The notes: generated by a model not told the origin, from the letters alone. A DNA stretch of 64,000 nt from Bacteroidales bacterium (GCA_963665485.1 OY762227.1:84637-148636), one strand, 5' to 3'. Counted from the first letter of the stretch, positions 13,678 to 46,936 are shown. Program-made: numbers and translations.

Positions 13678-13682
13678 TAAAC

Positions 13683-26807: not shown

Positions 26808-27512
26808 TTACCTCTTAATAAACCTCGATTCGATCCTGCTCATTACTTCATTTCTATAGTTTTTACTCAAAGGAAGCCGCATCGAACCTGTGATAACTTC
26901 ATTGCCATCAATAGTTTGAATAGCTGAAATTGCCACCAGAAAGGATTTATGTATCCGCACAAAAAGCTCGGCAGGCAGTTGCTCTTCAATACCCGAAAAT
27001 GTGAGATAGGTAATGTATTTTTTTTGCTTTGTATAGATGATGACATAATTAGCCATGGCTTCGATGTAAACTACCTCGGCCATTATTATTTTTTCAATTT
27101 TTCCATTGCATTTTATAAAGAAAAAGTCACCGGTAATGCTGACTTCCTTATTTCGGGCATGAAGATAATTCTGCGCTTTTTCCACAGCTTTCAGGAACCG
27201 TGCAAAGGAAATTGGTTTGAGCAGATAATCAACTACATCCAGTTCAAAACCTTCCAACGCATATTCGGAATATGCCGTTGTAAAAATAACAAGTGGTGGC
27301 TCAGCCAATGCTTTTACAAATTCAATTCCTGTGAGCTTAGGCATCTGAATATCAAGAAAAATGAGGTCGATTTTATGCTTTTGCAGTAAACCTGCAGCCT
27401 CAGCCGCGCTTTTGCATTGGGCAACCGGGTTCAGATAATCTATCTGCCTTACATATTCCATTATGCCTTCACGAGCAATAGGCTCATCATCCACTACAAG
27501 ACAATTAATCAT
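26808..27512 (-). CDS. LytR/AlgR family response regulator (REC + LytTR DNA-binding domain)
   Basis: REC motifs (CLVVDDEP, DLIFLDIQMP, KP) with a C-terminal LytTR pattern (IHKSFLV...). The ATG overlaps the kinase stop codon by 8 nt. Confidence 0.9.
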   Translation of the reverse strand: MINCLVVDDEPIAREGIMEYVRQIDYLNPVAQCKSAAEAAGLLQKHKIDLIFLDIQMPKLTGIEFVKALAEPPLVIFTTAYSEYALEGFELDVVDYLLKPISFARFLKAVEKAQNYLHARNKEVSITGDFFFIKCNGKIEKIIMAEVVYIEAMANYVIIYTKQKKYITYLTFSGIEEQLPAELFVRIHKSFLVAISAIQTIDGNEVITGSMRLPLSKNYRNEVMSRIESRFIKR

Positions 27513-28575
27513 GATATTGGATTTTTAGGGTTGTTTCATATGTATTTTCATTATGCTGCCTTGATATAGAGTGCCTGCCGGGATATAATAATGCAAGTCT
27601 TCGTTCCAGGTTTTTCAATCCAAGTCCGCTCGAATTCTGCAACAAATCAGTTCCATCGGAAGAATTATAGGTATTTACTACGTTAACCACAAACTGAGAA
27701 TCAGGTTGGATAGAGATGACAATATGTAGTTTGTTTTTCGACGGATCTTTATAATTCGAAATATGCTTAAATGCATTTTCTACAAGTGGTAATATAAGAA
27801 GTGGTGCAATTTTAAATGCAGCAATATCTCCGGGGAGCGTCAATCTCAAATCTGTTCCGGCTTCCATTCTCAGTTGCTGGACAGTAACAAAATTTTGGAT
27901 ATAAGCGAGTTCTTTCGAAATATCAATCATATCGGTAGTACATTCATAAAGTTGGTACCGAAGCATTTCCGAAAGTTTTTCCACAGAATTCCGTGCTTCG
28001 CTGTTTCCCTTATGAATTTGAAAATAAATGGTATTCAGAACATTAAAAAGAAAGTGAGGATTTATCTGGGCACGCAGAAAAGCAAGTTCAGTACTCACCT
28101 TTTCATTTTCAACAACATGCAGTTGCACCTCCATACCAAAACGATCGATAATTATTTGAATAGCACCGCTTATAACAATAACAATACAGTTGATTATAAA
28201 AAAGGCCGCAGAAATAGCTTGTATAACATTAATGCTCGCAAATATTGATTTCCCGCTCAATGCATAATAAATGGCTCCACCCAGAAAATACGTAAGCACC
28301 GTATTTACAAATGCAGTAAGAAGCAATGCACCAATAAATTTATTAATTAGTTTCCGATATAAAAGCCTTGGTACCAGCACTTTTGATGAAAGATAGGCCG
28401 GAAAAGCTGTAAATCCGGTAACAACAAGGGTGGCAAGAAATTGATGTAAAAATGGAGTTTTATAGTCGTAAATGAGGTATAAAAGAAAAATGGTGAGAAT
28501 AATCCACAAAAGTAGATAAATACCGACCTCCGTTTTTTTGATTTTCAGGCTCATAAAAAGCTCCTTTTTAAACAT
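27505..28575 (-). CDS. LytS-type sensor histidine kinase (His_kinase PF06580-like + HATPase)
   Basis: About 4-5 N-terminal TM helices. H-box region LRAQINPHFLFNVLN and an ATPase N-box (LILPLVENAFKH). The start is taken as the ATG at 28575. Confidence 0.85.
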   Translation of the reverse strand: MFKKELFMSLKIKKTEVGIYLLLWIILTIFLLYLIYDYKTPFLHQFLATLVVTGFTAFPAYLSSKVLVPRLLYRKLINKFIGALLLTAFVNTVLTYFLGGAIYYALSGKSIFASINVIQAISAAFFIINCIVIVISGAIQIIIDRFGMEVQLHVVENEKVSTELAFLRAQINPHFLFNVLNTIYFQIHKGNSEARNSVEKLSEMLRYQLYECTTDMIDISKELAYIQNFVTVQQLRMEAGTDLRLTLPGDIAAFKIAPLLILPLVENAFKHISNYKDPSKNKLHIVISIQPDSQFVVNVVNTYNSSDGTDLLQNSSGLGLKNLERRLALLYPGRHSISRQHNENTYETTLKIQYHD

Positions 28576-28911
28576 GTGCAATTTACAGCTATTTCGTTCT
28601 GATTGTTTTTTGATTCATCAAGAATATCCGGCCTTTCATCCAGCAATGCTTTCATGTGGTGTAAAACCATCTTCGTAACTGTAGGTAAGTCTCTAAATTT
28701 ACTGTGATAATCAACCACTTTCCTTGAAGTGAATTTAGGGAATTTAGTAAATAAATTCTAACTCGTTTACTGAGAATCCTCTACCTAATAAGTTGATGCC
28801 TTTTGTTGGATTCGATTCTATACTCTACTTTCTTGTATATCATGTTTCATTACTCAGACTATAAAGAATTTCAATCACATTTTATAATAACCTTATTAAC
28901 AAGTAAATACC

Positions 28912-31900
28912 ATGAGAAAATTTACGACTCTGCTCCTGTTCTTAGCCGCCGGATTGGTCAGTTATGCTCAAACTACTGAACTGGAACCAAACAATTCCTT
29001 TGCAACAGCAAATTTTATCACAACGGATAATATTAAGACCGGAAATATTTCTGCATTTACTGATGTGGATTATTTTGTATCGTACCAAAGTGAAGATGGC
29101 ACCCAGAAACTATATATAAAAGCAACTAATATAAGTGCGGCGGCCAGCTATTTGTATTTTACAGTGTATGGAAGCAGTAGAGGGGCTCTAACTGCCAGAT
29201 ATATTTCCGGTTCATCTAGTATTGCTGCCGGAGCTACCGTTTATGATACCATTACGCTTTATGGAAGAGGAATAGATTCAACATTCTTTAAGTTTGAGTC
29301 GAGTGCCACATTTTCCTATGAACTAAAATACAAACTTGAGGACTTGAGTACCTGTGATGCTGAACCTAATAACAGCTTTGCTTTGGCTACTTCTATCAAT
29401 CAGAACGAAACCAAAGCGGGACATATTAAATATATTAAAGATGGAATTGCAGATGACTATGATTATTACCGAACCAAAACATCCTATGATGGCCTTTTTA
29501 AACTATACATTACAGCTACCAATACAAGTGGTGCTTCCAACAATTTGTATATAACTGTATTTGGAAGTAACAAAGGACAACTGGAGGCAAAGTATATTTC
29601 CGGAACATCAGCGATACCTGCCGGGGCAACGGTTAGTGACAGCATTACCCTTTACGGAAGAGGTGTTGATTCAGTTTCCTTCAGGTTTCAGGCAAGTGGT
29701 ACATTTTCCTACAATTTAAAATACAATGTTATTGAAACCAAGGATAATGATGCAGAACCCAACGGAAGTTTTGCGTCAGCTCTTCCAATTAATCAGAACG
29801 AAATTAAGACAGGGCATATCAAATATATAAAAGATGGAGTTGTTGATGACTATGATTATTATCTAACCAAAACCACCGACGATGGTACCTTAAAAATCTA
29901 TTTATCAGCAACAAACACAGGCCCGGTCAGTTCGTACTGTTATTTCTCAGTGTTTGGAAGCAATAAAGTGCAGCTAACAAGCCGGTACATTGTCAGTGCC
30001 TCGGTAAGTCCTGGAAACACAGTTTATGATACCATTACACTTCGGGGAAGAGGAGCGGATTCGGTCTTTTTCAGGTTCGAAGCAAGTGGTACGTATTCGT
30101 ATTCATTCAAATATGATATTACAGATGTAAGTGCTATAGATGCAGAACCTAACAATAGTTTTGCCACAGCAATTCCAATTATTCAGAATGAAACAAAATC
30201 AGGCCATATCAAGTACATCAGCAATGGGGTGGTAGATGATTATGATTATTATAGCTCCAAATTGTCCGACGATGGTACATTAAAAATTTATTTATCAGCC
30301 ACCAATACAGGCCCAGCCAATTCATACTGCTATTTCTCGGTGTTTGGAAGTAATAAAGTGCAGTTGACTGCACGGTACATTGCCTCTGCCTCAGTAAGTC
30401 CTGGAATTACAGTTTACGATACCATTGCACTCCGGGGACGGGGAGTGGATTCAGTATTTTTCAGATTCGAAGCAAGTGGTTCGTATTCTTATTCATTTAG
30501 GTATGAAATTATAGATGTAAGTGCCAAGGATACAGAACCCAACAATAGTTTTGCCTCCGGGGTTCCTATTAAGCAGAACGAAACGAAATCGGGACACATA
30601 AAATACATTTTAAATGGGGTTGTTGATGACTATGATTATTACCGCACCAAAACATCAGATGATGGCACTATAAAAATTTATGTTTCGGCAACAAATACGG
30701 GAGAAGCTTCGAGTTGGCTTTATTTCTCAGCCTATGGGGGTAACCAGGGATTACTGACGGGAAAGTATATATCGGAAGTACCTTCTATTCTTCCCGGCGC
30801 AAAAGTTTATGATACAATAACTTTGAAAGGAATTGGAGTTGATACGCTTTTCTTCAGGATGGAGGCAACCGGCACTTATTCCTACGACATTAATTATGAA
30901 ATAATTGATAAAAGCTTAAGTGACAAGGAACCCGATAACACGTTCGCAACGGCTATCAAAACCAATATGAAACAAGTGAATATGGGCCATTTGATGTACA
31001 AAGCGAAGGGACTAACAGACCAGGACGATTATTATGTAACGCCTGTTTCAACCAAAGGTGACCTGAGAATTATTGTTGAGTTAACCAATATCAGCGGAAC
31101 AGCCAACTGGGTGTACTTATATGGATACAATAAATCCAAAACGCTGGTAGTGCAACAGTATATAAAGAAAATTACAAACTTGCCTCCCGGCCAGCTGATC
31201 CGCGATACCGTTGTGCTGAAATGTGCAGTGATGGACACATTTTACCTGAGGTGGACCGCCGGGGGTACTACCAATTATAAGTTCATGATGGAGATGGTTG
31301 ACCGGCAACCCTATGCCAACATGACCCACGAACGGCTAGGCAATACAGTTGGTTTCAGGCCACAACTGGCAAATGCAGATAAATTTATGTGGGATTTTGG
31401 CGATGCCACTTCCAGTACTCAAAAATACCCGATAAAAACCTATCCGATTGGATATTTTACAACTAATCTGATTGCAATAAACACAGCCTGCAATTTTAAA
31501 GATACGGCACAAACTGCAATCGAAGTTAAAGGAGTTGAATACTTTACGCCTGATTCATCGGGTGTTGGGGGCGATTGTATATTTAAAATATTTGGCGGCG
31601 GCCTCGACTCAACCACAAAAGTCAGATTAATAAAGGGTACCACAGTGCTTACTCCGGTGCAGTTGGAAACTTCAAAAAACAATGTTGAACTTCATGCTAT
31701 TTTCAATTTTCATTTGGTTGACGAAGGCACCTATGATGTAGAGATAGAAATTAAAGGGGAACCAACCTTTGCATACCCCGGCGGTTTCAAGCTGAAAGCA
31801 TTCAGGTATCCTTATACATGGTCCGAAATTGTAACCCCTACCCGCATGAGGACTAACCTGAATACCAGCATGAAACTAGTGGTGGGGAACAAAGGAAATG

Positions 31901-33963
31901 TAATGGCATCAGGGGTTTTGGTTGCGGTTATATGGCCTAAGTCAATCGATTTGAAATTTGACACCAAATGGTTCAAGCCACCGGCAAGTGGAAATTATTC
32001 AATAACCGCAGCCGATACTACCTTCAATTTTAAGTGGGAAGATATTCAGCGTTTTTATAGCGATAGCTTCAATACGGTTACAGCAATAGATACTTTTAAC
32101 CTGCAACCGTATGACGGGTATATGGATTTAATTCTTATCCCAAAAATAGCAGCGGGAAGCACGTACGAAATTCCATTGATTGCTAAAACCACAACTACCG
32201 GAGCTAAAGACTTTGTTACTTACACATTTAAGCCCAATATCTGGGGCTCCTGTCCCAATGGCAGCTGGATGGACGCTTCGGAAAATATGGCGGTTGAGTT
32301 CGCCGATGGGCTTGAAAAGGTAACAGGTACGGTTCCTGTTTTGAATAAGTCACCAGTTAGCTGGCTTGCCAAGGCCGTTAAAGGAACCACACAACATATG
32401 GCAAACTTAGGCCAGGTAATGGGTGCTACTTACAACTATGCTACCGGTGTAACTCCCGATATATACTCGTCATTGCCTTCCAACTTTAACCGTAATGTTC
32501 ATGCCGGAAACATGCAGGTTGTAGGTGCCGTTTGTGAAGTAGGAGTAGATTTAGCGTTCCAAAAAGGGGGTGAAAACTTCATGAAAGGTCAAACCGACAA
32601 TTTGAATAAATGGATAGCTAAAAATCCAAATGCTACTGCTTCGAGCATTGATTTTGCAATCGATAATCTAAATAATATCAATGATGTCAGGAATTTCATA
32701 AAAAACGCTCATCAAATGGTAAAAAACGGTAAGGATCTGTACGATTTAAACGAAAAAATAAACCGACTGAACCAATTGGTAAAGGATTGTCCTGAATTAA
32801 AAGAACAGTTGGAGGAATTAAAGAAAAACCTGAACCAGGATATGACTATCCGTGATCCCAAGCACACTACAACTTCGTCAGTTACATCCTTTGATCCGAA
32901 TGAAATGATCGGACCCATAGGCCAGGGACCAGATCAATTTGTATCGAAACAGGAAAGGCAACAATTTACTATCACCTTCGAAAACAAGAAAACCGCGCTC
33001 GCGGCAGCTCAAATTGTTACCATATACGATACCCTGGATATTACTAAGTTTGATCTGAACAGCTTTGAATTCAACGATTTTACCATTGCAAACAGAACGT
33101 ACACTGTTCCTAAGGGCCGTAAGCAGTTTGTATTGCAGGATAGCCTGTCACCAACCATGAAAGTGAGGATAAACGGTGGGATAGAAGCCAACACTGGCCT
33201 GGTAACATGGCAATTTACAGCCATTGATCCAGCTACAGGCGACATCCCTGTATTCGAAGGATTCTTACCGCCCAATACTAACATTCCTGAAGGGGAAGGA
33301 TCGGTTTCATTTACTGTGTTACCAAAACAATCCTTAGCTGACGGACTTGTTATCAAAAATCATGCTTCCATCATCTTTGATCAAAATGAACCTATACTCA
33401 CCAATACCTGGCAAAATGTGGTAGATGCACTCCCTCCTTCCAGCACTGTTTCCGCTACCCGGGTCATGGGTAGTCCCGAAATAAATCTTACACTTTCTGG
33501 GAGCGACGCTTCCTCCGGAATAGGTTATTACGTGGTTTATATGCAGGAGATAGGTGGCGAATGGCTCGCTATCGGAAACACATTTGGTGAAACTGAAAAG
33601 ATTATTGCTGACTCATCCAAACAATACAATTTTTATGTGTTGGCCAACGATCAGGTTGGAAATACTGAAACTAAAACTCCCGGAGCCGAAGCAACTGTTG
33701 GCATTAATGAATTGATCAAAGGCAAGGGTGAGCTGAGCCTGGGTCCAAACCCGGCCACTGATATGATTTATATTGGTGGTTTAAAACAATCAGGCACTTT
33801 TATTATCTCAGACCTTTCAGGCAAAAAAGTTTTGTCAGGGATTGTTTCTGAAAATAATAACAGCATTGATATTCACCAACTTAACAGTGGAATGTATTTA
33901 CTAAGCGTTTATTCCAATGGAAGTTTTGAATCATTGAAATTGCTTAAATCCAACTTTAAATAA
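28912..33963 (+). CDS. 1683-aa secreted multidomain protein: 6 PPC-like repeats, PKD-like domain, uncharacterised central region, T9SS C-terminal sorting domain
   Basis: Signal peptide. Six ~130-aa modules start at xEPNNSFA...G.I...DDYDYY (a pre-peptidase C-terminal-like pattern). FMWDFGDATSS is PKD-like. The C-terminal ~75 aa (LGPNPATDMIYI...GMYLLSVYSNG) looks like a Por secretion tail. Confidence 0.85.
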   Translation: MRKFTTLLLFLAAGLVSYAQTTELEPNNSFATANFITTDNIKTGNISAFTDVDYFVSYQSEDGTQKLYIKATNISAAASYLYFTVYGSSRGALTARYISGSSSIAAGATVYDTITLYGRGIDSTFFKFESSATFSYELKYKLEDLSTCDAEPNNSFALATSINQNETKAGHIKYIKDGIADDYDYYRTKTSYDGLFKLYITATNTSGASNNLYITVFGSNKGQLEAKYISGTSAIPAGATVSDSITLYGRGVDSVSFRFQASGTFSYNLKYNVIETKDNDAEPNGSFASALPINQNEIKTGHIKYIKDGVVDDYDYYLTKTTDDGTLKIYLSATNTGPVSSYCYFSVFGSNKVQLTSRYIVSASVSPGNTVYDTITLRGRGADSVFFRFEASGTYSYSFKYDITDVSAIDAEPNNSFATAIPIIQNETKSGHIKYISNGVVDDYDYYSSKLSDDGTLKIYLSATNTGPANSYCYFSVFGSNKVQLTARYIASASVSPGITVYDTIALRGRGVDSVFFRFEASGSYSYSFRYEIIDVSAKDTEPNNSFASGVPIKQNETKSGHIKYILNGVVDDYDYYRTKTSDDGTIKIYVSATNTGEASSWLYFSAYGGNQGLLTGKYISEVPSILPGAKVYDTITLKGIGVDTLFFRMEATGTYSYDINYEIIDKSLSDKEPDNTFATAIKTNMKQVNMGHLMYKAKGLTDQDDYYVTPVSTKGDLRIIVELTNISGTANWVYLYGYNKSKTLVVQQYIKKITNLPPGQLIRDTVVLKCAVMDTFYLRWTAGGTTNYKFMMEMVDRQPYANMTHERLGNTVGFRPQLANADKFMWDFGDATSSTQKYPIKTYPIGYFTTNLIAINTACNFKDTAQTAIEVKGVEYFTPDSSGVGGDCIFKIFGGGLDSTTKVRLIKGTTVLTPVQLETSKNNVELHAIFNFHLVDEGTYDVEIEIKGEPTFAYPGGFKLKAFRYPYTWSEIVTPTRMRTNLNTSMKLVVGNKGNVMASGVLVAVIWPKSIDLKFDTKWFKPPASGNYSITAADTTFNFKWEDIQRFYSDSFNTVTAIDTFNLQPYDGYMDLILIPKIAAGSTYEIPLIAKTTTTGAKDFVTYTFKPNIWGSCPNGSWMDASENMAVEFADGLEKVTGTVPVLNKSPVSWLAKAVKGTTQHMANLGQVMGATYNYATGVTPDIYSSLPSNFNRNVHAGNMQVVGAVCEVGVDLAFQKGGENFMKGQTDNLNKWIAKNPNATASSIDFAIDNLNNINDVRNFIKNAHQMVKNGKDLYDLNEKINRLNQLVKDCPELKEQLEELKKNLNQDMTIRDPKHTTTSSVTSFDPNEMIGPIGQGPDQFVSKQERQQFTITFENKKTALAAAQIVTIYDTLDITKFDLNSFEFNDFTIANRTYTVPKGRKQFVLQDSLSPTMKVRINGGIEANTGLVTWQFTAIDPATGDIPVFEGFLPPNTNIPEGEGSVSFTVLPKQSLADGLVIKNHASIIFDQNEPILTNTWQNVVDALPPSSTVSATRVMGSPEINLTLSGSDASSGIGYYVVYMQEIGGEWLAIGNTFGETEKIIADSSKQYNFYVLANDQVGNTETKTPGAEATVGINELIKGKGELSLGPNPATDMIYIGGLKQSGTFIISDLSGKKVLSGIVSENNNSIDIHQLNSGMYLLSVYSNGSFESLKLLKSNFK
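28978..31310 (+). repeat. six in-frame tandem coding repeats, period ~390-393 nt
   Basis: The repeat starts (GAxxxxGAACCyAAy = D/x-x-E-P-N) for units 2-6 are at 29356, 29749, 30139, 30529 and 30922. Unit 1 starts near 28978. Units 3 and 4 look the most alike by eye at the protein level. Confidence 0.9.
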
Positions 33964-33998
33964 TACCAAATATACATCCATTTAAAAATCGGAAACTC

Positions 33999-34799
33999 AT
34001 GAAACAATACAACAGGCTATTTATCTGCCTATTAGCTTTTACAGGCTTTATTTTACTATTCACATTGAGTTGTAAAAAAGATGATTCCAATAATACAACG
34101 GATGAAACTACGGTAAAAGATATTGACGGCAATGTTTACAATACAGTTACCATTGGAACCCAAACCTGGATGGCTGAGAACCTGAGAACTACCAGATACA
34201 ACGATAGCACCCTGATACCACTTCCTTTTGCCAGGTCAAGTGCAATTTTTGGCCCTTTCGTTTGCACGTATAGATACACAACCAATTCCGACACAATAAA
34301 AACCTATGGCAGGTTATACAACTGGTACGCGATCACCGCCGGTAACGGTAAACTATGCCCTAAAGGTTGGCATATACCTACTGATGCCGAATGGACCACA
34401 CTTACTGATTACCTTACCGCCCATGGTTTCAATTATGATGGCTCCGCAGCAGCAACTGCAGCCCCGGGTACAACCCCTGAAAATAGAATAGGCAAAGCTC
34501 TGGCATCGTCAACAGGCTGGCTTTCATCAGCAATTGAAGGATCTGTTGGCAATACCGATTTCGCTGACAAACGGAACGCAGTTGGTTTTAATGCCCAGCC
34601 GGGTAGTGCCCGCAACGAAGTCGGGCAATTCACACAAATGGGTGTAGGTGGTTTTTGGTGGACTTCAACAGAAAACAGTTCAAACACAAATAATGCCTAT
34701 GGCCGTTCGCTGCTTAACAGTTACTATAGCCTAAATACAGGCGTAGCCAATAAAATGTGCGGCTTTTCAGTTCGATGTGTTAAGGATCCACAGCCTTAG
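33999..34799 (+). CDS. FISUMP (Fibrobacter succinogenes major paralogous domain) lipoprotein
   Basis: Lipobox (LFTLSC). Hallmark DIDGNVYNTVTIGTQTWMAENL, LYNWYA, CPKGWHIPTDAEW and a C-terminal GFSVRCVKD. Confidence 0.85.
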   Translation: MKQYNRLFICLLAFTGFILLFTLSCKKDDSNNTTDETTVKDIDGNVYNTVTIGTQTWMAENLRTTRYNDSTLIPLPFARSSAIFGPFVCTYRYTTNSDTIKTYGRLYNWYAITAGNGKLCPKGWHIPTDAEWTTLTDYLTAHGFNYDGSAAATAAPGTTPENRIGKALASSTGWLSSAIEGSVGNTDFADKRNAVGFNAQPGSARNEVGQFTQMGVGGFWWTSTENSSNTNNAYGRSLLNSYYSLNTGVANKMCGFSVRCVKDPQP

Positions 34800-35046
34800 C
34801 TTGCTCTATGTGGTAAAGCAACCTGAGAAAGCAGGAAACAAAGAGCCTGTACCTGGTGATTATTCCAAGTAATTGAGAAAAAGCATGTTGGATAGTATTT
34901 AATAAATTGGATGGTCAATGTTTAGTGGAGTAGATTCTATTTTTAAAGTCTCGAAATTGGAGAAAGGCCGTGAAGTAAGAAAAATGCGTCTAAATACACA
35001 ATTAATAAAAATTTGATCTCAATAACAATTAACGAAGGAAAACAAA

Positions 35047-37271: not shown

Positions 37272-37307
37272 TTCCTAAAACAAATTCAAAATCCAGAAGA
37301 CTAAATT

Positions 37308-39056
37308 ATGAAAACAATTTTACCGCTTTTCTTTTCCCTATTTTTCATTTCCATTCTCAGCGCGCAAACTCCGCAATGGATAACTTACACAAGTTCAAAC
37401 TCTGGTTTGCCTGGTAACAATACCAAGTCAATAGCAATAGACGCATCAGGGACTAAATGGATCGGGACTCAGCAAGGACTTGCAAAATTCGATGGCACAA
37501 CCTGGAAGGTTTATAGCGGGAACGTTTATATTACTCCAACCCTTTACTTCATACTTACCGATGTTCATGATATCACTATTGATAACAATGGGAACAAATG
37601 GATGTCTGTAGGTGGCTTACTTGCAAAATTTGATGGCACAAACTGGAAAGTTTATTCTTCTTCAAATACTGGAATGCCTAACAATGGTGTCCTTTCAATA
37701 GTGGAAGACGGTTCAGGGAATATTTGGATTGGTACAGATGGTGGCGGAATTGTAAAATTTGACGGCACAAACTTTACGATTTATAACTCTTCAAATTCGG
37801 GATTGCCAAATAATACTATCTTTTCATTAGCAATAGATGCTTCAGGAAATAAATGGGTAACAACCTTTGGTGGCGGACTTGCAAAATTCGACGGTACAAC
37901 CTGGACAGTTTACAATACTTCAAATTCGGGTATTCCTTCAAATAGTTTATTTAACGCAATTGCTATAGATGGGTCAGGAAATAAATGGTTGTCAACTTAT
38001 GATGGTGCACTTGTGAAATTTGATGGCACAAATTGGACCGTTTATAATAGTTCAAATTCGCTGATTCCGGCATATAAGAAAATTTTTTCACTTGCAATAG
38101 ACGGTTCAGATAATAAGTGGATAGGGATGGAGAATGGCGAACTTATAAAATTTGACGGAACTAACTGGACGGTTTATACTAATCCTGATCTAGCACTTTC
38201 TAATAGCATAATTCAGGCAATAGCAATTGACGGTTCGGGAAATAAGTGGTTAGCGACCTATGGTGGCGGTGTTTCTGTTTTTAAAGAAGGAGGAGTTACT
38301 ATGCCGGCTGAACAGGCACTCAACGGTGAATTCAACTATGGGATACAGAACTGGAATGTCTCAACCTATGCAACAGGCGCTACAGCCACCATACAAGTTG
38401 ATAGCTCTTCTGCAATATCAGGAAAAAATTCCGCTGCTATTACTATTTCCCAAACTACCGGGACCGACTGGCATATTCAAATGTGGCAATGGTTATCCCT
38501 TAAGCAGGGACATAAATATACAATTACCTTCAAAGCAAAGGCTTCGGCTGCCAGATCGATAATCTTGGCAGTGCAGAAAGGCGCATCACCTTATACAACT
38601 TATCTCTTCAATGCACATAACCTTACAACCCAGGTTCAGACTTTCACTGACGAAGTAACTATGAATACAACAGATTTGGCGGCTAAGCTACAGTTTTATC
38701 TTGGAAGCTCCTCTGCAAAGGTTTGGATTGATGATATTACCATTGTTGATAACAATCTGACAACCGATTTAGATGAGCCTGTTGACGCTAATAGAATTAT
38801 TTCGGTTTTACAGAATTACCCCAACCCTTTCAATTCAGTAACAACCATCAAGTATAAAGTCACACAGCCAGGCTTTGTATTGTTAAAAGTATTTGATGTT
38901 CTGGGAACTGAAGTTGCCAGCCTGGTAAATGAGAAAAAGGCCGTTGGAGACTATTCGATAGATTGGAATGCAGCGGGATCCGAAAATGGTATTTACTTCT
39001 GCAAAATGCAAAATGGAAGCTTTACTGAGGTAAAAAAAATGATGCTGATGAAATAA
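37308..39056 (+). CDS. secreted protein: two-component-regulator-propeller (Reg_prop) repeats + CBM4/9-like module + T9SS CTD
   Basis: Signal peptide. Seven or more repeats of I(A/V)IDxSGNKW(I/L)xTxxGGLxKFDGTNWTVY. NGEFNYGIQNW...VWIDDITIV resembles CBM_4_9. The C-terminal NYPNPFNSVTTIKYKV... is a Por tail. Confidence 0.8.
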   Translation: MKTILPLFFSLFFISILSAQTPQWITYTSSNSGLPGNNTKSIAIDASGTKWIGTQQGLAKFDGTTWKVYSGNVYITPTLYFILTDVHDITIDNNGNKWMSVGGLLAKFDGTNWKVYSSSNTGMPNNGVLSIVEDGSGNIWIGTDGGGIVKFDGTNFTIYNSSNSGLPNNTIFSLAIDASGNKWVTTFGGGLAKFDGTTWTVYNTSNSGIPSNSLFNAIAIDGSGNKWLSTYDGALVKFDGTNWTVYNSSNSLIPAYKKIFSLAIDGSDNKWIGMENGELIKFDGTNWTVYTNPDLALSNSIIQAIAIDGSGNKWLATYGGGVSVFKEGGVTMPAEQALNGEFNYGIQNWNVSTYATGATATIQVDSSSAISGKNSAAITISQTTGTDWHIQMWQWLSLKQGHKYTITFKAKASAARSIILAVQKGASPYTTYLFNAHNLTTQVQTFTDEVTMNTTDLAAKLQFYLGSSSAKVWIDDITIVDNNLTTDLDEPVDANRIISVLQNYPNPFNSVTTIKYKVTQPGFVLLKVFDVLGTEVASLVNEKKAVGDYSIDWNAAGSENGIYFCKMQNGSFTEVKKMMLMK

Positions 39057-39069
39057 TGGAGCCATAAAA

Positions 39070-40503
39070 ATGAAACTCAACATGAAAAAATTACTAATTA
39101 TTTTCATCGCCATTCTTGGCATATTTCATGCCAATTTGTTGGCGCAACCTGCAAACCGCAACTATGGTCTAAAACCCTGGTATCAATCACCTGAACAAAA
39201 TGTGAATGCCGAATTCCCAGGTATAAATCAAGCCATTGATGCCATTACATTCTCTGATGGAAGCATTAAATTAGATAGTATTATTGCCCAAAAACGCCAA
39301 TTGGAATATTTTACTTATGATAACCTGGGCCATTTGCTTTCTGATAGAACTTATGTAAGTTATGATCCCGTTCTTGATCTGTTCAATTCTGGTTACGAAA
39401 ATCTTTATTCGTATGCCAATGGTTTACTTGTTACATTAACCCATAAAGGATACGACTATATAAACCATGCCTGGAATAATAACTATAAGGCCGAATACAT
39501 AAACGATGTTCAAGGCCATCAAACATTATATACTCTATACGATTGGAATACAATAAATAGTACCTGGGATGCTCGAAGTAAAAACGTATATACGTATAAC
39601 CCAAGCGGGAAAAAAACCTTAGAAACCGACTCAGTATGGAATCAAACTACTTTGAAATTTGACAATTCGTACAAGTACGAGTTTCAGTATGATGCAAATG
39701 GAAATCTAACACTTAAAACAACGTATAATTGGAGAACAGACGTGTTAGAATGGAGCATTTCATCTAAAGATGAAAATACTTACGATGCCAATGGCAACAT
39801 CACTTTAAGTAAAAAATATACGTACAACAACACTGGCCTGAATTATTTATCGGCTCAGTCTGAATACAGCTATGATGCCGGCAATCTAATTACCATAATT
39901 TCATATTCCGGTTCGTATGGCAATCCAACGTTGACCCTTAGCACTAAAATAGAATACAGCTATGATGATAACGGTAACCGTACGCAGGAAATTGACTATG
40001 ATTGGTTCCTTGCTCATCAAGTTTGGACTAATTCGTACAAACGAGTTTATTCCTATGATCCTTCTGTTAATGCGGCCGATGTTTTATGGTCACTGAATGG
40101 TGTTAATTGGATAAAAAACAAAATAACGTCGTTTCAAAATTTCCCATGGTACAATAGCCAATGGACAGCACAACCTGTTCAACAATATTACTATTCCGGT
40201 TATAGTGGTATAATGCCTTTGTCCATTGAACAAACAAGTACAAATAGCATTAGCCTTTACCTATACCCCAACCCTTTCACTATAAGCACAACTATCAAGT
40301 ATAAAGTTACAAAGCCAGGATTTGTATCGTTAAAGGTATTTAATGCAATGGGTACCGAAGTTGTCAGCCTGGTGAACGAGAAAAAGACAGTTGGCGAGTA
40401 TTCTGTTGAGTTGAAAGCTTCAGGATTATCCGATGGTATATACTACTGCCGCTTGCAGGAAGGCTTAATTTCAGAATCAAAAAAACTTGTTTTACAGAAA
40501 TAA
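39070..40503 (+). CDS. secreted YD/RHS-repeat-like protein with T9SS CTD
   Basis: Signal peptide. Repeated Y(S/T)YDANGN motifs (FQYDANGNLTL, NTYDANGNITL, YSYDDNGNRTQ). C-terminal LYPNPFTISTTIKYKV... tail. Confidence 0.75.
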   Translation: MKLNMKKLLIIFIAILGIFHANLLAQPANRNYGLKPWYQSPEQNVNAEFPGINQAIDAITFSDGSIKLDSIIAQKRQLEYFTYDNLGHLLSDRTYVSYDPVLDLFNSGYENLYSYANGLLVTLTHKGYDYINHAWNNNYKAEYINDVQGHQTLYTLYDWNTINSTWDARSKNVYTYNPSGKKTLETDSVWNQTTLKFDNSYKYEFQYDANGNLTLKTTYNWRTDVLEWSISSKDENTYDANGNITLSKKYTYNNTGLNYLSAQSEYSYDAGNLITIISYSGSYGNPTLTLSTKIEYSYDDNGNRTQEIDYDWFLAHQVWTNSYKRVYSYDPSVNAADVLWSLNGVNWIKNKITSFQNFPWYNSQWTAQPVQQYYYSGYSGIMPLSIEQTSTNSISLYLYPNPFTISTTIKYKVTKPGFVSLKVFNAMGTEVVSLVNEKKTVGEYSVELKASGLSDGIYYCRLQEGLISESKKLVLQK

Positions 40504-40561
40504 ATTCACGCGTCCCATCGCCGCAAAAGAGGGGACGTGTTAACTTAAAAATCAACTCATT

Positions 40562-41861
40562 ATGAAAATAAAACTTTTACTCTTAGTGTTCCCCATTTTA
40601 TTTACAACCACAAACTTGCGTGCAGCCGATTTTACGGTTGATGGGATTGCTTACTCTATTACATCCGCTACCTCACCATATACCGTGGCAGTAAGTTTAA
40701 AATCACCTGGTTACACTGGTGTGGTAACTATCCCTGCCTCGGTAAGCTACAATTCTATTAACTATTCGGTAACTTCTATAGGAGTTAGCGCTTTTCAGAA
40801 TTGCGCCGGTTTAACCTCCGTAACCATCCCTAATTCAGTAAGTTCTATTGGGACTCAGGCTTTTTGCTATTCTGCAGGTTTAACTTCTGTAACCATTCCT
40901 AATTCAGTAAATTCAATTGGAACACGAGCTTTTTTATAATTGTACAGCTTTAACCACCGTTACCATCCCTGCATCAGTAACTTCTATCGGGGTTGAAACC
41001 TTTACCGGTGTAGGCAGTATTGATGTAAATAGTAATAATCCTAATTATTCAGGTATTGACGGAGTGCTTTACAACAAAGCCCAAACAATACTTATTCATT
41101 GCCCTAAATCAAAAACAGGCAGTTTTGATATTCCCTCCCAGGTAACTTCAATCGGGAATGGTGCTTTTTTAGGTTGTGAAAGTTTGGCTTCAGTAACCAT
41201 TCCCAATTCGTTAAACACCATAGGAGATAACACTTTTTATTCGTGTTCCAACCTCTCAAGTATTATCTTACCTAATACGTTAACTGCGATAGGAGATTAT
41301 GCTTTTGCACATTGCGGAAAATTATCAACATTTACCATCCCCCCATCAGTAACTTCTATTGGAGAATTTGCATTTTATGATTGTACTGGTTTAACTACTG
41401 TTACCATTAATAATTCGGTAACTTTAATTAAAAGATATGCCTTCGAAGATTGTACCGGTTTAACCACTCTGTATGCCAACAGTCCCACTCCGATTGACTT
41501 AAGCAGTAGTCCGTATGTATTTTATAATGTACATACTTCCACATGCACATTGTATGTGCCCAATGGTTCCAAAAGTCTATATTCGGTAGCTGATCAATGG
41601 AAAGACTTTATAAATATAGTGGAACATACAGTTACCGGCATCGCCACCGTAGCGGCATCCAAATTAAACATCAGGGTAATCGGACACACAGTGGAAATAG
41701 GTTTGCCGGAAAAACCGGCACAGATTCAGGTAGTTGATATTAGTGGCAGGCAGTTATACAACGAAAAACCGTCGGGCAGTACAATTTCCATTAGCCTTCC
41801 GCAGGCGGGTGTATATTTGATAAGGGTAGGAAATAAAACTACAAAACTGGTGGTAAAATAA
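40562..41861 (+). pseudogene. BspA-type leucine-rich-repeat surface protein with T9SS-like CTD, frameshifted in a T6 run
   Basis: Track ORFs 40562-40939 and 40917-41861 join if the T run at 40930-40935 is T5. That would read ...[18 protein letters not shown]..., matching the repeat consensus (F.[18 protein letters not shown]). Confidence 0.75.
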
Positions 41862-41965
41862 GTGCGAATTAGCCCTCACCCGCACTCTCTTGCTTGTGAG
41901 TGGAATAGAGAAAATTAATTCTTAATGCAAAATAAACAAACTTAAAATCAGATAGGGAAAACAGT

Positions 41966-44128
41966 ATGAAAACAAAACTTATACTTTTATTATTCATCAT
42001 TGCCTTAACAATCACAAACCTGCGCGCAGCCGACTTTACGGTGAATGACATTGCATACTCTATTACTTCCGCTTCGGCGCCATATACAGTAGCAGTAAGC
42101 AAAAAATCGCCTATCTACGCGGGAACTGTAACTATTCCCAACGTGGTAAGCTACAATTCAATCAGCTATTCGGTAACTTCTATCGCGGAGCGTACTTTTC
42201 AAAGTTGCACTGGTTTAACCTCCGTAACTATTCCCAATTCGGTAACTTCTGTCGGGAGATATGCTTTTGATAATTGCACCGGTTTAACCTCTGTTATACT
42301 TCCAAATTCGATAACTTCTATCGCGTCTTACACTTTTGATGGTTGCATCGGTTTAACCTCTGTTACCATTCCCAATTCAATAACTTCCATCGGGGCTAGT
42401 GCTTTTAATGGTTGCACCGGATTAACCGCTGTTATCATACCCAATTCGGTAACTTATTTAGGGGATTATGCCTTTGATGGTTGTAGCGGTTTAACCTCTG
42501 TTACCATTTCCTCCTCTATACTATCTATCGGAGATCATGCTTTTTATAAATGCACAGGATTAACCTCTGTAACGATTCCCAATTCGGTGACTTCTATCGG
42601 GCAATATGCTTTTTATAAATGCACAGGATTAACCTCAGTAACTTTTCCCAATTCGATAACTTCTATCGGGACTGATGCCTTTAATGGTTGTACCGGTTTA
42701 ACCTCTGTTACTATTCCCAATTCGGTAACTTATATCGGGGGGTGGGCCTTTGAAAATTGCACCGGTTTAACCTCTGTTATCCTCCCTAATTCGGTAACTT
42801 TTATCGGGACCAGTGCTTTTAGTGGTTGCACTGGCATAATTTCCATCTATGCCTGCAAACAAACGCCAATCAATTTTTACAACAATACAGGCGTATTTGA
42901 TTATATAGATAAAACCAAATGTACACTTTACGTACCCATAGGCTCCAAAAGTTTATATACTGCTGCATATCAGTGGGAAGAGTTTACAAATACCAAGGAA
43001 AGTAGCACGGCCGGCTTTATGGTGAATGGCATTGTTTACATCATCACCTCATCTACTTCTCCTTATACCGTTGAAGTCGCTGCTGGCGGCACCTCCTCAG
43101 ATGTGGTTACTATCCCTGCCTCGGTTAGCTGCAATTCAATCAGCTATTCGGTAACGTCTATAGGAAATTATGCTTTTAATCAGTTCACTGGTATAAGCTC
43201 GGTTACCCTTCCCGGTTCGGTGACCGAAATCGGGAGTTATGCTTTTTACGGATGCACTGGTTTAACAAGTATTACCATCCCCTTATCGGTATCGTCAATT
43301 GGGAAATATGCTTTTACATTTAACAGCTGTTTATTTTATGTTGATGGCAATAATGCATACTTTTCAAGTAAAGACGATGTGCTTTACAATAAAGTACAAA
43401 CAACACTTATTCAATGCCCCGCGTCAAAAACAGGCGGCTTTGATATCCCCGCTTCGGTAACTTCTATTGCGGATGGTGCTTTTGAAAATTGCTCCGGGAT
43501 AACGTCAGTTAGCCTCCCTAATTCACTTACATACATCGGGGATAATGCTTTTAATGGTTGCTCTGGTTTAACTTCAGTCTGCCTCCCAAATTCGCTTACC
43601 CGAATTGGGGATTATGCCTTTTACAAATGCACCGGTTTAACCTCTGTTACTATAACTGCATTGGTTGTTATCAGTCCTAACGCAGTAACTGCTATCGGGG
43701 ATTATGCTTTTGATAAATGCACCAATTTAATCTCGCTGTATGCAAACAGCGCAATACCGATTAATTTGAGACTTAATTCGGACGCAAATTATACCGGATT
43801 TAATTCTGATATCATACTGTATGTACCAATTGGTTCAAAAAGCCTGTACGCATCAGCGCCGGTGTGGAAAGATTTTAAAAACATCGTGGAGCATACAGTT
43901 ACCGGCATTGCCACTATTAGTGCGTACAGTCTAAATATCAGGGTAACCGGGCGCACGGCTGAAATCGGCTTGCCAGAAGAATCCGCACACGTTCAGATTG
44001 TTGATATTAGCGGAAGGCAGCTTTACAACGGAAAACCGACAGGCAGCACATTTTCCATTACATTTCCTCATGCGGGCATCTATTTGGTAAAGGTGGGAAA
44101 TAGAACGGCTAAACTGCTTGCTCCATAA
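41966..44128 (+). CDS. BspA-type leucine-rich-repeat surface protein (two fused LRR modules) with T9SS-like CTD
   Basis: Signal peptide. More than 15 repeats of ~23 aa ([23 protein letters not shown]). The N- and C-termini are paralogous to the preceding gene. Confidence 0.85.
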   Translation: MKTKLILLLFIIALTITNLRAADFTVNDIAYSITSASAPYTVAVSKKSPIYAGTVTIPNVVSYNSISYSVTSIAERTFQSCTGLTSVTIPNSVTSVGRYAFDNCTGLTSVILPNSITSIASYTFDGCIGLTSVTIPNSITSIGASAFNGCTGLTAVIIPNSVTYLGDYAFDGCSGLTSVTISSSILSIGDHAFYKCTGLTSVTIPNSVTSIGQYAFYKCTGLTSVTFPNSITSIGTDAFNGCTGLTSVTIPNSVTYIGGWAFENCTGLTSVILPNSVTFIGTSAFSGCTGIISIYACKQTPINFYNNTGVFDYIDKTKCTLYVPIGSKSLYTAAYQWEEFTNTKESSTAGFMVNGIVYIITSSTSPYTVEVAAGGTSSDVVTIPASVSCNSISYSVTSIGNYAFNQFTGISSVTLPGSVTEIGSYAFYGCTGLTSITIPLSVSSIGKYAFTFNSCLFYVDGNNAYFSSKDDVLYNKVQTTLIQCPASKTGGFDIPASVTSIADGAFENCSGITSVSLPNSLTYIGDNAFNGCSGLTSVCLPNSLTRIGDYAFYKCTGLTSVTITALVVISPNAVTAIGDYAFDKCTNLISLYANSAIPINLRLNSDANYTGFNSDIILYVPIGSKSLYASAPVWKDFKNIVEHTVTGIATISAYSLNIRVTGRTAEIGLPEESAHVQIVDISGRQLYNGKPTGSTFSITFPHAGIYLVKVGNRTAKLLAP

Positions 44129-44289
44129 TCACCAGGAGGAAATGCTGTTAATTGAAATAAACTGTTAAAATCCGAAGCAGGAGTTACTTTCTGATAATGA
44201 ATATTTCTCTTGCTTTATCCGATAAAAATACCTAACTTGTTTTTTTATATTATATCAAAGTGATAGTTAATAGTCTAAAACATATTTCC

Positions 44290-46116
44290 ATGAAAACGCT
44301 GAGAATACTTCCCTTTCCCGGATTATTGGTATTAATCCTTTTAAATATAAACATTTCAGCGTTTGCCACCGGTGGCGTTTTGAGTGGAAACGGTACGGCA
44401 GGTAGCCCATATTTGGTTAAGGACTATGCTGATCTAAAAGCGATAGGAACAGGTAGTTATACGTTATCGAAAGTTTACCGTCTCACCAATGATATTGATG
44501 CTTCAGCATCGAAAACAGAAAACGGAGGAAGCGGTTTTGTTCCGATAGGCAACGAAACAACCAATTTTACGGGCAAATTTCACGGCAGTGGTCATGCAAT
44601 TAAAAATCTTAATATCCAGCGTCCGACGGCTAATTATATAGGGCTTTTTGGTTATAGTACCCTTTCAACAATTGACAGCCTGGGAGTAACAAACGCAAAG
44701 ATCGTTGGAAATTATTATGTAGGTTGCATTGTTGGATTTAATAAGGGCATAACAAGCAACAGCTATTCAAGCGGAACTGTTACCGGCATCAGTGTTGTCG
44801 GCGGTATTGCTGGTGAAAACGACGACACAATCATTAACTGCTCTTCATCGAGCAACTGCTATGCAAGCGGCGAAAGACTTAGCGGAAGCACCGTTGGTGG
44901 AATTGCGGGGAGATGCGATTTTGGGGCAATCAGCAATTGTCATTCATCAGGAAACGTAAAAGGTGATATTGTTGAAATTGGTGGTATAGCAGGGCAAATT
45001 GAATTTTCCACTATCAGCCATTGTTATTCAACCGGTAACATAACAGGGGGGGGCTTTGTTGGCGGTATTGCCGGACTTAACCAGCAAGGTACAATTAGCG
45101 TGTGTTATTCGACGGGTAATATAATTAGCAATAGCAATAGCTGTGGTGGTATAGTAGGATCGAATGGTGCAGGTTACACTGGCCCTGGCACAACAATCAA
45201 TTGCTATTCAACCGCTAATGTTACCGGCACTGATGACGCGGGAGGTGTTGCGGGATCTAACAACGACACAATCAGCCTCTGCTATGCAACAGGGAAAGTG
45301 ACCGGAACTTATATCGGTGGAGTTGTCGGGAATAATTATGACGCCACAGTTATTCAGTGTAACTGGAATATAGAAACCACCGGATTAATTTTAGGACATG
45401 GTGATGGCCACAGTACGTTTACAGGATCAGGGTTAACAACAATACAGATGAAAAAGACTTCCAATTTTAGCGGCTGGGATTTCAATAAAGTATGGTTAAT
45501 CCGCACCGATAGCACTTATCCCGGTTTGCGAGGTATAGAAAACGCACCCTTTGCGCTTCCTGATATCCTGAAATCGAACAGAACCTTTACACTTTCCAGG
45601 CTACTGCTGAATGATTATGATATTCAATCAGTACATAAAAATCTTGTGCTGAAAATAGTGAGAGTAAGCGAAGGCACAACGGATAGCGTAAGCAAATTCA
45701 CGTTCCCCGCAAATGTTTCCAACGGCCAAGTGGATACTCTGTTCTATCGTGTAGGGAAAGCCCTTGCGGCAGATACCTTGTGGGGTAACATTGCAAAAGC
45801 AGTTATCACACTTGATGAAACTTTCACATCCCTAGAATTATATACGGGAGAATCATCGTTGCTAATACAGAATTATCCCAACCCATTTACTTCAGTCACA
45901 ACAATCAAATACAAAATTACAGAGCCAGGCTTTGTATCGATTAAGGTATTTAGTGTAATGGGCTCTGAAGTTGCAACCCTTGTGTGTGAAGAGAAAACTG
46001 CCGGAGAATATTCAGTTGAGTGGAATGCTGATGGTTTTAGAAATGGGATTTATTTCTGCAAACTGCAAAAAAATGGGAACAGCTTTGAATTAAAAAAAAT
46101 GATGCTCTTAAAATAA
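44290..46116 (+). CDS. GLUG-motif repeat protein with T9SS CTD
   Basis: Signal peptide. Repeated ...VGGIAG.N.GTI..CYSTGNVTG... units characteristic of the GLUG motif. C-terminal NYPNPFTSVTTIKYKI... tail. The ATG at 44290 is preferred over the GTG at 44260. Confidence 0.8.
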   Translation: MKTLRILPFPGLLVLILLNINISAFATGGVLSGNGTAGSPYLVKDYADLKAIGTGSYTLSKVYRLTNDIDASASKTENGGSGFVPIGNETTNFTGKFHGSGHAIKNLNIQRPTANYIGLFGYSTLSTIDSLGVTNAKIVGNYYVGCIVGFNKGITSNSYSSGTVTGISVVGGIAGENDDTIINCSSSSNCYASGERLSGSTVGGIAGRCDFGAISNCHSSGNVKGDIVEIGGIAGQIEFSTISHCYSTGNITGGGFVGGIAGLNQQGTISVCYSTGNIISNSNSCGGIVGSNGAGYTGPGTTINCYSTANVTGTDDAGGVAGSNNDTISLCYATGKVTGTYIGGVVGNNYDATVIQCNWNIETTGLILGHGDGHSTFTGSGLTTIQMKKTSNFSGWDFNKVWLIRTDSTYPGLRGIENAPFALPDILKSNRTFTLSRLLLNDYDIQSVHKNLVLKIVRVSEGTTDSVSKFTFPANVSNGQVDTLFYRVGKALAADTLWGNIAKAVITLDETFTSLELYTGESSLLIQNYPNPFTSVTTIKYKITEPGFVSIKVFSVMGSEVATLVCEEKTAGEYSVEWNADGFRNGIYFCKLQKNGNSFELKKMMLLK

Positions 46117-46225
46117 TAATCAGCCTGTGAAAGGTCAGCTCTCTCAGGTTTGTCTTTGTACAAGCATATATTAAATCTTAAAACCAATAAATCAAATCCA
46201 TGAACCTAAAATACCTTAAACCAAC

Positions 46226-46936
46226 ATGAAAAAGATACATACAAAATTTTTCGGCCTTATGTTCTTTTTAGTTTTAGCATTGATCATGGCCATCAGCTGC
46301 AAGAAAGATGAAAACAATAATTCACCGGAAACAGTTACTGATGTTGACGGCAACATTTACCATACTGTTACCATTCACGGCCAAACCTGGATGGTTGAGA
46401 ACCTTAAAGTCACCCATTTGAACGATAGTACCACTGCCATTCCAAATGTTACTAACAACACTACCTGGATAGGTTCAACTACCATGGCTTATTGTTGGTA
46501 TAACAACGATGCCTCAAATAAAACCACGTATGGCGCGCTTTACAACTGGTACGCTGTAAATAACAGCAAATTATGCCCTAAAGGCTGGCGTGTGCCTTCC
46601 AAAGATGAATGGAACACCCTGATCTCCAACCTGGGTGGCGACACTACCTTAGTTGGCGGATATTTAAAAGAAGCCGGCACAACACATTGGGTTTCACCAA
46701 ATACAGGCGCCGATAACAGCAGTGGATTTTCGGCACTTCCGGGAGGCAGCTGCTATCATACGAATGGTTCATTCTACTATAATGGAAAATATGGCTGGTA
46801 TTGGAGTTCGACAGGAACCTCAACAACCGAAGCATGGCACATATATGTGAACTATAATACAAGCAGCATATTCGGGAAAACAGGTTCATGGAAAGATGGA
46901 TTTTCGGTCCGTTGTATTAAAGGATTACCTAAATAA
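46226..46936 (+). CDS. FISUMP domain lipoprotein (second copy)
   Basis: Lipobox (MAISC). DVDGNIYHTVTIHGQTWMVENL, LYNWYA, CPKGWRVPSKDEW, GFSVRCIKG. Confidence 0.85.
   Translation: MKKIHTKFFGLMFFLVLALIMAISCKKDENNNSPETVTDVDGNIYHTVTIHGQTWMVENLKVTHLNDSTTAIPNVTNNTTWIGSTTMAYCWYNNDASNKTTYGALYNWYAVNNSKLCPKGWRVPSKDEWNTLISNLGGDTTLVGGYLKEAGTTHWVSPNTGADNSSGFSALPGGSCYHTNGSFYYNGKYGWYWSSTGTSTTEAWHIYVNYNTSSIFGKTGSWKDGFSVRCIKGLPK

Follow-up and report, generated by a model that had tools for sequence, protein, structure and literature searches.

A LytTR-type two-component system paired with a FISUMP lipoprotein gene, and a variable array of type IX secretion cargo genes between them, in Bacteroidales

We analyzed a 64,000-nucleotide stretch from a Bacteroidales bacterium (GCA_963665485.1 OY762227.1:84637-148636; hereafter the window, meaning this whole stretch), in which the genes of a LytTR-type two-component system are transcribed divergently from an island of genes for lipoproteins and cargo proteins of the type IX secretion system (T9SS), numbered here G1 to G9. 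Comparison with related genomes indicates that the conserved unit of this locus is the two-component system together with the FISUMP lipoprotein gene G9, because G9 orthologs adjoin the kinase gene in relatives and the genes inserted between the two are variable. In particular, G9 is the ancestral divergent partner of the system, and G1-G8 (~17.3 kb) a lineage-specific, co-oriented accretion whose content varies between genomes; the second FISUMP gene, G2, belongs to an inserted G1-G4 block. The association is real and conserved, and we regard it as a tidy evolutionary pattern but not as a new kind of system.

The members of the proposed conserved unit are the following.
26808..27512, minus strand: response regulator, 234 aa, with REC and LytTR DNA-binding domains (Pfam Response_reg 79.1 bits, LytTR 69.8 bits)
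27505..28554, minus strand: sensor histidine kinase, 349 aa, with four predicted transmembrane helices and a His_kinase core (PF06580 84.3 bits, cut-off 25.2)
46226..46936, plus strand: G9, FISUMP lipoprotein, 236 aa, lipobox ISC followed by CKKDE (Fib_succ_major 138.5 bits, TIGR02145 123.1 bits)

The kinase and regulator genes overlap by 8 nt, and the kinase start was set at the ATG at 28554 because all orthologs use that start. The regulator carries both a REC and a LytTR domain, with the acceptor residue Asp54 in the FLDIQMP of its translation, and the kinase translation contains INPHFLFN, the phosphoacceptor motif of His_kinase proteins. A preliminary description of this DNA, made from the sequence, had called the kinase LytS-like, which is right for the PF06580 core but not for the sensory part: no 5TMR_LYT, GAF, or HATPase_c domain was detected, PF06580 was the sole Pfam match even at E<=1, no NCBIfam model matched, and only ~150 residues, forming four hydrophobic helices, lie N-terminal of the core. 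The regulator scored below the NCBIfam equivalog cut-offs (BtsR, 149 vs. 246 bits; LytR, 102 vs. 375 bits) and reached 34.9 bits against NF052313 (cut-off 300). By domain content, then, the kinase is placed outside the LytS/BtsS subgroup, being without 5TMR-LYT and GAF, and the system falls below the equivalog cut-offs. Kinase orthologs form >100 clusters with 71-100% identity, nearly all of 349 aa, and the titled clusters derive from Lentimicrobiaceae, Bacteroidales, or Bacteroidota metagenome-assembled genomes. Across 14 related loci, the regulator is 84-93% identical, which exceeds the flanking housekeeping genes for the helicase, Tag, and MtnA (72-89%), and the kinase is 70-84% identical.

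We compared 15 independent, Lentimicrobiaceae-like loci with upstream sequence (the window, L002, L003, L004, L005, L007, L016, L017, L019, L020, L027, L028, L029, L030, and L033). The linkage between system and cargo that had been predicted was recovered at its core: in 15 of 15 loci, the gene divergent from the kinase encodes either a FISUMP lipoprotein (nine loci) or a protein with a T9SS C-terminal domain (CTD; six loci). The content of the array was not constant, with 0, 1, 2, at least 4, or 8 genes inserted between the kinase and the G9-type FISUMP gene. The G9 ortholog (45-71% identity) directly adjoins the kinase gene in L007, L017, L020, L027, L028, and L029; in L002, L003, and L019 it comes last, beyond the inserted genes. 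L017 is the most instructive, since its outer synteny is that of the window and its gene order is M20-MtnA-Tag-(one 294-aa open reading frame, ORF)-FISUMP<>kinase-regulator-PIF1-type helicase, with nothing between the FISUMP and kinase genes. The insert comprises one gene in L019, two in L002 and L003, at least four in L005, L030, and L033, and eight in the window. The order G1-G2-G3-G4 is repeated in L033, and L030 holds G1, G4, G7, and a G6-like gene. Across the seven loci with inserts, every inserted gene (26/26) encodes a CTD or FISUMP protein, and every one (26/26) is co-oriented with G9. On the other side of the system, the neighbor of the regulator varies (helicase, M23-CTD, ABC, DUF389, and others); thus, only the cargo side is held.

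The kinase match list apparently shares 13 contigs with the G9 list and two with the G1 list; five of these were read directly as loci, and the ten further apparently shared contigs suggest more cases of kinase-G9/G1 co-occurrence. Three neighbors of the system in related loci are noted in their own right: a T9SS protein with a Peptidase_C1 domain plus lectin and PKD domains, following the FISUMP gene in L027 (4703-8872); an M23-peptidase T9SS protein on the regulator side in L002 (11904-14960); and an insertion sequence (IS)-like fragment adjoining the FISUMP gene in L004 (7334-7663). Because T9SS peptidases lie close to the system in L027 and L002, the neighboring cargo extends beyond binding modules, and a description by such modules alone does not fit these neighborhoods in general.

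The spacer between the kinase gene and G1 measures 357 nt from the ortholog-supported ATG at 28554; the 330 nt given previously applies only if a TTG start is used. The following elements were located in it.
28570..28715, minus strand: conserved non-coding control block of ~150 nt, directly upstream of the kinase ATG, conserved in all loci
28694-28702, minus strand: control-region block GTAAATTTA (alignment)
28659-28667, minus strand: control-region block GTTTTACAC (alignment)
28618-28628, minus strand: control-region block GATATTCTTGA (alignment)
28578-28594, minus strand: control-region block AAATAGCTGTAAATTGC (alignment)
28619..28646, minus strand: candidate promoter for the kinase operon, of the Bacteroidetes type, TTG-N17-TATTCTTG, 64 nt before the kinase ATG (pattern scan)
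28819..28840, plus strand: cargo-side conserved element TATACTCT-N3-TTCTTGTATAT, candidate cargo promoter, 72 nt before the G1 ATG

An alignment of the control block over 13 loci had a mean column identity of 72% and contained the invariant blocks GTAAATTTA, GTTTTACAC, GATATTCTTGA, and AAATTGCTGTAAATTGC, each of which was found once per locus and nowhere but in this kinase-upstream region. The TTG-N17-TATTCTTG candidate, which is made up of one pair of the blocks and follows the Bacteroidetes promoter consensus, lies 62-64 nt before the kinase ATG in the window, L002, L020, and L027, and 80 nt before it in L029. An RNA leader or riboswitch was considered for the control block and rejected: RNAalifold gave three pairs and no covariation, the minimum free energy had z=+0.7, and Rfam had no match. 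A 33-codon upstream ORF in this region of the window does not keep its frame in L002. On the cargo side, the pattern TA(C/T)ACTCT...T(C/T)CTTGTATA(A/T) is common to the window, L033, L030, and L002, although the first cargo gene of L002 is a different one; its 11-mer occurs four times in 454 kb, each time at this position and in this orientation. This element could act as a cargo promoter. No conserved block was found by alignment upstream of the G9-type FISUMP genes, and a scan for sigma-70 promoters and intrinsic terminators gave no excess over shuffles and is therefore uninformative for Bacteroidota. Taken together, the alignments show that conserved regulatory DNA separates the system from the gene divergent to it.

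For the island itself (28912-46936), the coordinates and gene order of the preliminary description were correct. The ten consecutive genes it counted are nine genes in 11 ORFs, because two ORF pairs are single genes split by frameshifts. All nine are co-oriented on the plus strand, divergent from the kinase and regulator genes; those preceding G9, with the CTD-coding segments that several share, are as follows.
28912..33963, plus strand: G1, 1683-aa T9SS protein (DUF7619 67.4 bits, Por_Secre_tail 37.5 bits)
33999..34799, plus strand: G2, FISUMP lipoprotein, 266 aa, lipobox LSC followed by CKKDD (Fib_succ_major 133 bits, TIGR02145 119.6 bits)
35047..37271, plus strand: G3, BNR/Sortilin-type propeller with type A CTD (BNR/Sortilin/PSII_BNR), frameshifted in the window
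37308..39056, plus strand: G4, Reg_prop propeller with CBM_4_9 and type A CTD, 582 aa (Pfam)
39070..40503, plus strand: G5, DUF3836/YD-like repeat protein with type A CTD, 477 aa (DUF3836 34.4 bits, Por_Secre_tail 39.5 bits)
40562..41861, plus strand: G6, BspA-type leucine-rich repeat (LRR) protein with divergent CTD, shortened paralog of G7 (LRR_5), frameshifted
41966..44128, plus strand: G7, BspA-type LRR protein, 720 aa, with 69-nt repeat units and divergent CTD (LRR_5 389 bits)
44260..46116, plus strand: G8, GLUG-repeat protein with type A CTD (Glug 49.9 bits in eight stretches, Por_Secre_tail 38.1 bits); its start is probably the ATG at 44290
37034-37271, 38819-39056, 40266-40503, and 45876-46113, plus strand: 238-nt CTD-coding modules of G3, G4, G5, and G8

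The two frameshifts differ in kind. The ORFs 35047-36054 and 36009-37271 form one BNR gene, G3, with a missing C at 35872/3 and a frame switch near 35873. G3 is intact (741 aa, one extra C) in two independent Logan short-read contigs, L013/L014 (ERR12015700, ERR12015701), which show no other difference from the window along 10.5 and 15.3 kb, and in L003 and L033 its orthologs measure 745 and 737 aa, respectively; the break in the window is a strain variant or, more probably, a consensus error of the source assembly. The ORFs 40562-40939 and 40917-41861 form one LRR gene, G6, with an extra T in the T-run 40930-40935. The G6 frameshift is present in the window and in both Logan contigs, that is, in all three assemblies, and is therefore taken as real; G6 is probably a pseudogene, and its T-run may be a phase-variable tract.

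Searches with hidden Markov models (HMMs) bore out most of the domain assignments made previously (both FISUMPs, BNR, Reg_prop with CBM4/9, both LRR_5 proteins, GLUG, and LytTR), whereas PPC went undetected and PKD and RHS stayed below threshold. G1 consists of a signal peptide, six ~130-aa EPNNSF repeats (28975-31311), a weak PKD domain (PKD_4 18.5 bits, cut-off 27), Ig-like sandwiches, a helical segment, DUF7619, and a type A CTD. No PPC domain (PF04151) was found in the whole protein at E<=0.01 or in a single repeat at E<=1, and a PDB profile search was empty. The repeats are nevertheless likely to be a divergent PPC-like fold, because full-length G1 homologs carry PF04151 and PKD_4 (PF04151 in P0271, P0311, P0312, P0331, P0337, and P0338). 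This family comprises widespread DUF7619 T9SS proteins of 1300-2800 aa in Chitinophagaceae, Flavobacteriales, and Bacteroidales. An AlphaFold2 model of G1 residues 860-1560 (pLDDT 73, confident in the beta-sandwich parts) had Foldseek matches to integrin alpha legs, streptococcal antigen I/II C-domains, the CNA collagen adhesin, and alpha2-macroglobulins, and by this model the unannotated core of G1 is made of stalk or adhesin folds and not of an enzyme. A motif S-x-D-P-N-x3-G-P-x-G at the start of DUF7619 (32887-32922, G1 residues 1326-1337) was seen across 46 family members, with five residues invariant and the central Pro nearly so, directly after the poorly modeled helical segment; it may mark a site of processing or cross-linking.

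Among the other cargo proteins, G4 has orthologs in L030 (69%) and L033, and the G7 ortholog in L030 is 74% identical. G5 has DUF3836 above its cut-off and RHS_repeat below (20.6 vs. 22 bits); an Rhs/YD polymorphic toxin was rejected for this 477-aa protein, whose C-terminus is a T9SS CTD and not a toxin. The FISUMP proteins G2 and G9 are full-length TIGR02145 members (cut-off 41.65 bits) with lipoprotein signals; they share 39% protein identity, and the 75% identical DNA repeats at their genes reflect paralogy. An ortholog of G2 occupies the same position in L033. The two FISUMP genes had been described as bracketing the island, a symmetry that does not survive, G9 being ancestral and G2 lying within the inserted G1-G4 block. 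In FISUMP orthologs Cys25 is invariant, K26, K27, and D28 are invariant or nearly so, and KKD(D/E) follows the lipobox Cys25; this CKKD(D/E) after the lipid-modified Cys resembles what we take to be the surface-export signal of Bacteroidetes lipoproteins. An AlphaFold2 model of FISUMP was unusable (pLDDT 52), and no sequence relative was found in the PDB.

The statement that most of the proteins end in Por CTDs was confirmed: Por_Secre_tail/TIGR04183 exceeded the cut-off in G1, G3, G4, G5, G6, and G8, and the CTD of G7 (22.2 bits, TIGR04183 cut-off 23) was recognized by a custom CTD HMM (E=1.8e-16). The CTD proteins also have signal peptides, as read from their translations, and thus show both features of T9SS type A cargo. 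The 238-nt modules of G3, G4, G5, and G8 share 62-81% DNA identity and 57-71% CTD identity. An island-specific CTD or concerted evolution was considered and rejected, since the CTDs are as similar to those of island genes in other genomes as they are to one another within the window (57-71%), and the CTD class itself is globally common (81,493 50%-clusters at E<=1e-10).

All seven CTD-bearing ORFs of the window fall within the 18 kb of the island, the remaining 46 kb having none, and this clustering is not due to chance. Neighboring island genes are separated by 13-247 nt, and terminator-like sites are no more frequent than in shuffles. The G2-G3 gap (34800-35046) measures 247 nt in the window and 37 nt in syntenic L033; the extra ~210 nt may represent a promoter or what is left of an insertion. 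At the HMM level no catalytic domain was recognized in the island proteins, so the earlier statement that no enzyme-like domain is present holds there and, by AlphaFold2 and Foldseek, for the G1 core. Pfam and NCBIfam searches of 26808-46936 found none of the hallmarks of a polysaccharide utilization locus (PUL), namely a TonB-dependent receptor, SusD, or a glycoside hydrolase family, and no family of the T9SS machinery was found among the scanned ORFs of the 64-kb window. A mobile or horizontally acquired island was also considered. There is no tRNA, no integrase or transposase occurs in 26808-46936, the GC content (0.36-0.44) is like that of the rest of the window, and the synteny indicates stepwise vertical growth; horizontal acquisition is not supported. 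FISUMP domains have been reported as targets of diversity-generating retroelements (PMC11661182); such an element acting on the FISUMP genes was rejected, as no reverse transcriptase was found among the scanned ORFs.

Elsewhere in the window, a 125-aa gene of the 23S-rRNA-IVP/bAvd-like four-helix-bundle type (48944-49321, minus strand) stands between MtnA and the M20 peptidase and is absent in syntenic L017; it is not part of a diversity-generating retroelement, because its surroundings contain no reverse transcriptase. A single mobile-element gene was seen in the window, an IS4-type transposase (DUF4372 and DDE_Tnp_1; 60165-61355, minus strand), 13 kb from the island. At 13117-15170 (plus strand), an extracytoplasmic function (ECF)-type sigma factor gene is followed by a 495-aa ORF without a Pfam match, possibly an anti-sigma factor, and a 1178-aa Sortilin/BNR protein without CTD is encoded at 7771-11307 (minus strand).

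From these observations we propose the following mechanism. The kinase, of the intramembrane type with four transmembrane helices and no sizeable periplasmic domain, probably responds to a cue associated with the membrane or envelope and would phosphorylate the regulator at Asp54. The regulator would then bind within the conserved 150-nt block, from where it would govern the divergent promoter as well as its own operon. The old control of FISUMP would thereby extend to the array of cargo genes, or at least to the first of them, genes inserted behind the promoter being co-opted. Sec would carry the products across the inner membrane; passage through the T9SS and, most likely, anchoring on the cell surface would follow for the seven CTD proteins, and the two FISUMPs would be lipidated at Cys25. 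Overall, the cell would change its binding surface according to conditions, with an evolutionarily fluid set of binders. That the cargo is under the control of the regulator is a plausible inference. Taken as a whole package (conserved module, cargo accretion, and control of the array by the regulator), this reading seems to us on balance probable; our confidence is high in the evolutionary description and lower in the regulatory link.

Several observations weigh against this package. The conserved blocks hug the kinase gene and may serve autoregulation only; a motif search found the kinase-upstream and control motifs absent from the internal gaps of the island, and a pattern scan found no clear Bacteroidetes -33/-7 promoter on the cargo side. 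The larger gaps (G2-G3, 247 nt; G6-G7, 104 nt; G7-G8, 131 nt; G8-G9, 109 nt) could hold independent promoters. The presence of a probable pseudogene, G6, in the array speaks against strong selection for the set as a whole, and G1 has homologs (62% and 48% identity) at other sites where no LytTR system is nearby. CTD proteins are common in these genomes, with about eight encoded in the flanks of the compared loci outside the islands, and some of the clustering could thus be neutral. Finally, kinase homologs with 49-57% identity (Mucilaginibacter and the unassigned metagenome contig L022) face an outer-membrane beta-barrel gene, and therefore the pairing is confined to one family; more distant kinase homologs (26-35%) likewise have different neighbors and do not extend it.

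Much of this would be expected if the gap between the kinase and FISUMP genes were simply a permissive site in a zone of neutral plasticity, where cargo genes arrive with their own promoters and the system regulates itself and perhaps FISUMP or distant genes. The variation in island content between close relatives, the unlinked G1 homologs, the kinase-proximal motifs missing from the internal gaps, the pseudogene G6, the CTD genes in other flanks, and the IS fragment next to FISUMP in L004 all speak for such a zone. We nevertheless consider it rather unlikely, although a serious contender, for three observations stand against it: all 26 genes inserted in the seven loci are co-oriented CTD or FISUMP genes, and no housekeeping gene landed there; the neighbor on the regulator side is free to vary, whereas on the cargo side the gene always encodes a secreted protein or lipoprotein; and the cargo-side element is common to loci with different first genes. 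A bolder extension of the regulated array is that the LytTR control region acts as a capture site, such that T9SS cargo landing in the correct orientation before the ancestral FISUMP gene joins one signal-responsive surface-protein regulon; we put this forward tentatively, as a conjecture that is probably not correct.

The preliminary description had proposed a defined ten-gene adhesion or particle-binding system, composed only of binding folds, bracketed by two FISUMP genes and controlled by the LytTR system. The domain calls that mostly hold, the missing catalytic domains, the tight spacing on a shared strand, and the recurrence of the G1-G4 block in L033 are in keeping with that proposal. 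A coherent fixed system is nonetheless improbable, as content differs from genome to genome, with inserts ranging from none to eight genes; T9SS peptidases occur in related neighborhoods (Peptidase_C1 in L027, M23 in L002), G2 and G9 are not equivalent brackets, and one of the nine genes is broken. Three-component sensing, in which the FISUMP lipoprotein is an extracytoplasmic ligand-binding co-sensor feeding the kinase and the cargo genes are bystanders or outputs, would suit a kinase without a periplasmic domain, the strictly conserved kinase-FISUMP pairing, and a variable ligand-binding fold of the type reported as a retroelement target (PMC11661182), but is very improbable given that FISUMP evolves much faster (45-71%) than the kinase (70-84%), that it tolerates a move 17 kb away, and that CKKD(D/E), if it is the export signal we take it to resemble, would locate FISUMP to the external face of the outer membrane, at a distance from the inner-membrane kinase.

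If the capture-site reading were true, the lineage would own an evolvable, regulated adhesin "cassette array" whose composition tracks its niche, which would resemble PUL diversification with binding proteins instead of enzymes. If the array were not regulated by the system, the finding would amount to no more than an ordinary hot spot for insertions. Bacteroidota have very many LytTR-type two-component systems, our literature searches found none there with defined targets, and what is known of the regulation of T9SS cargo concerns mainly the machinery (PorXY). The pairing, which is strictly conserved across the family, and its 150-nt control region offer a testable entry point to LytTR function in an environmentally abundant anaerobic-digester and wastewater lineage; the pairing is also an entry point to the function of the uncharacterized FISUMP family and to the growth of surface-protein repertoires.

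The literature searches found no conserved pairing of a FISUMP ortholog group with a specific two-component system and nothing linking LytTR systems with T9SS cargo or FISUMP. The preliminary description knew of no locus type combining a LytTR system with a set of T9SS adhesin-like cargo; a two-component system tied to a T9SS protein does have a precedent in CusS/CusR and ChiA (PMC5127042). In the chitin locus of Flavobacterium johnsoniae, CusS/CusR is required for production of the locus-encoded, T9SS-secreted ChiA, that is, a two-component system controls a T9SS-secreted protein of its own locus (PMC5127042). The chitin locus is a PUL that includes SusC/D pairs together with glycoside hydrolases and a sugar transporter, whereas the locus described here has no SusC/D, no recognized enzymes, and variable content. 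FISUMP (TIGR02145/PF09603) is a paralogous lipoprotein family of Fibrobacter and Bacteroidota, of which G2 and G9 are full-length members. PorX/PorY of Porphyromonas gingivalis is likewise a two-component system tied to type IX secretion in Bacteroidota; PorX, however, has a PglZ/alkaline-phosphatase-like output and controls genes of the secretion machinery, whereas the regulator here is of the LytTR type and adjoins cargo rather than machinery. LytS/LytR and BtsS/BtsR share with the present system the PF06580 kinase core, the REC and LytTR regulator, and overlapping, co-transcribed genes in the order kinase then regulator, with targets that are typically adjacent genes. The kinase here differs from LytS and BtsS in having only four transmembrane helices and no 5TMR-LYT, GAF, or HATPase_c match, and the known targets of those systems are holin-like or transporter genes, not secreted adhesins.

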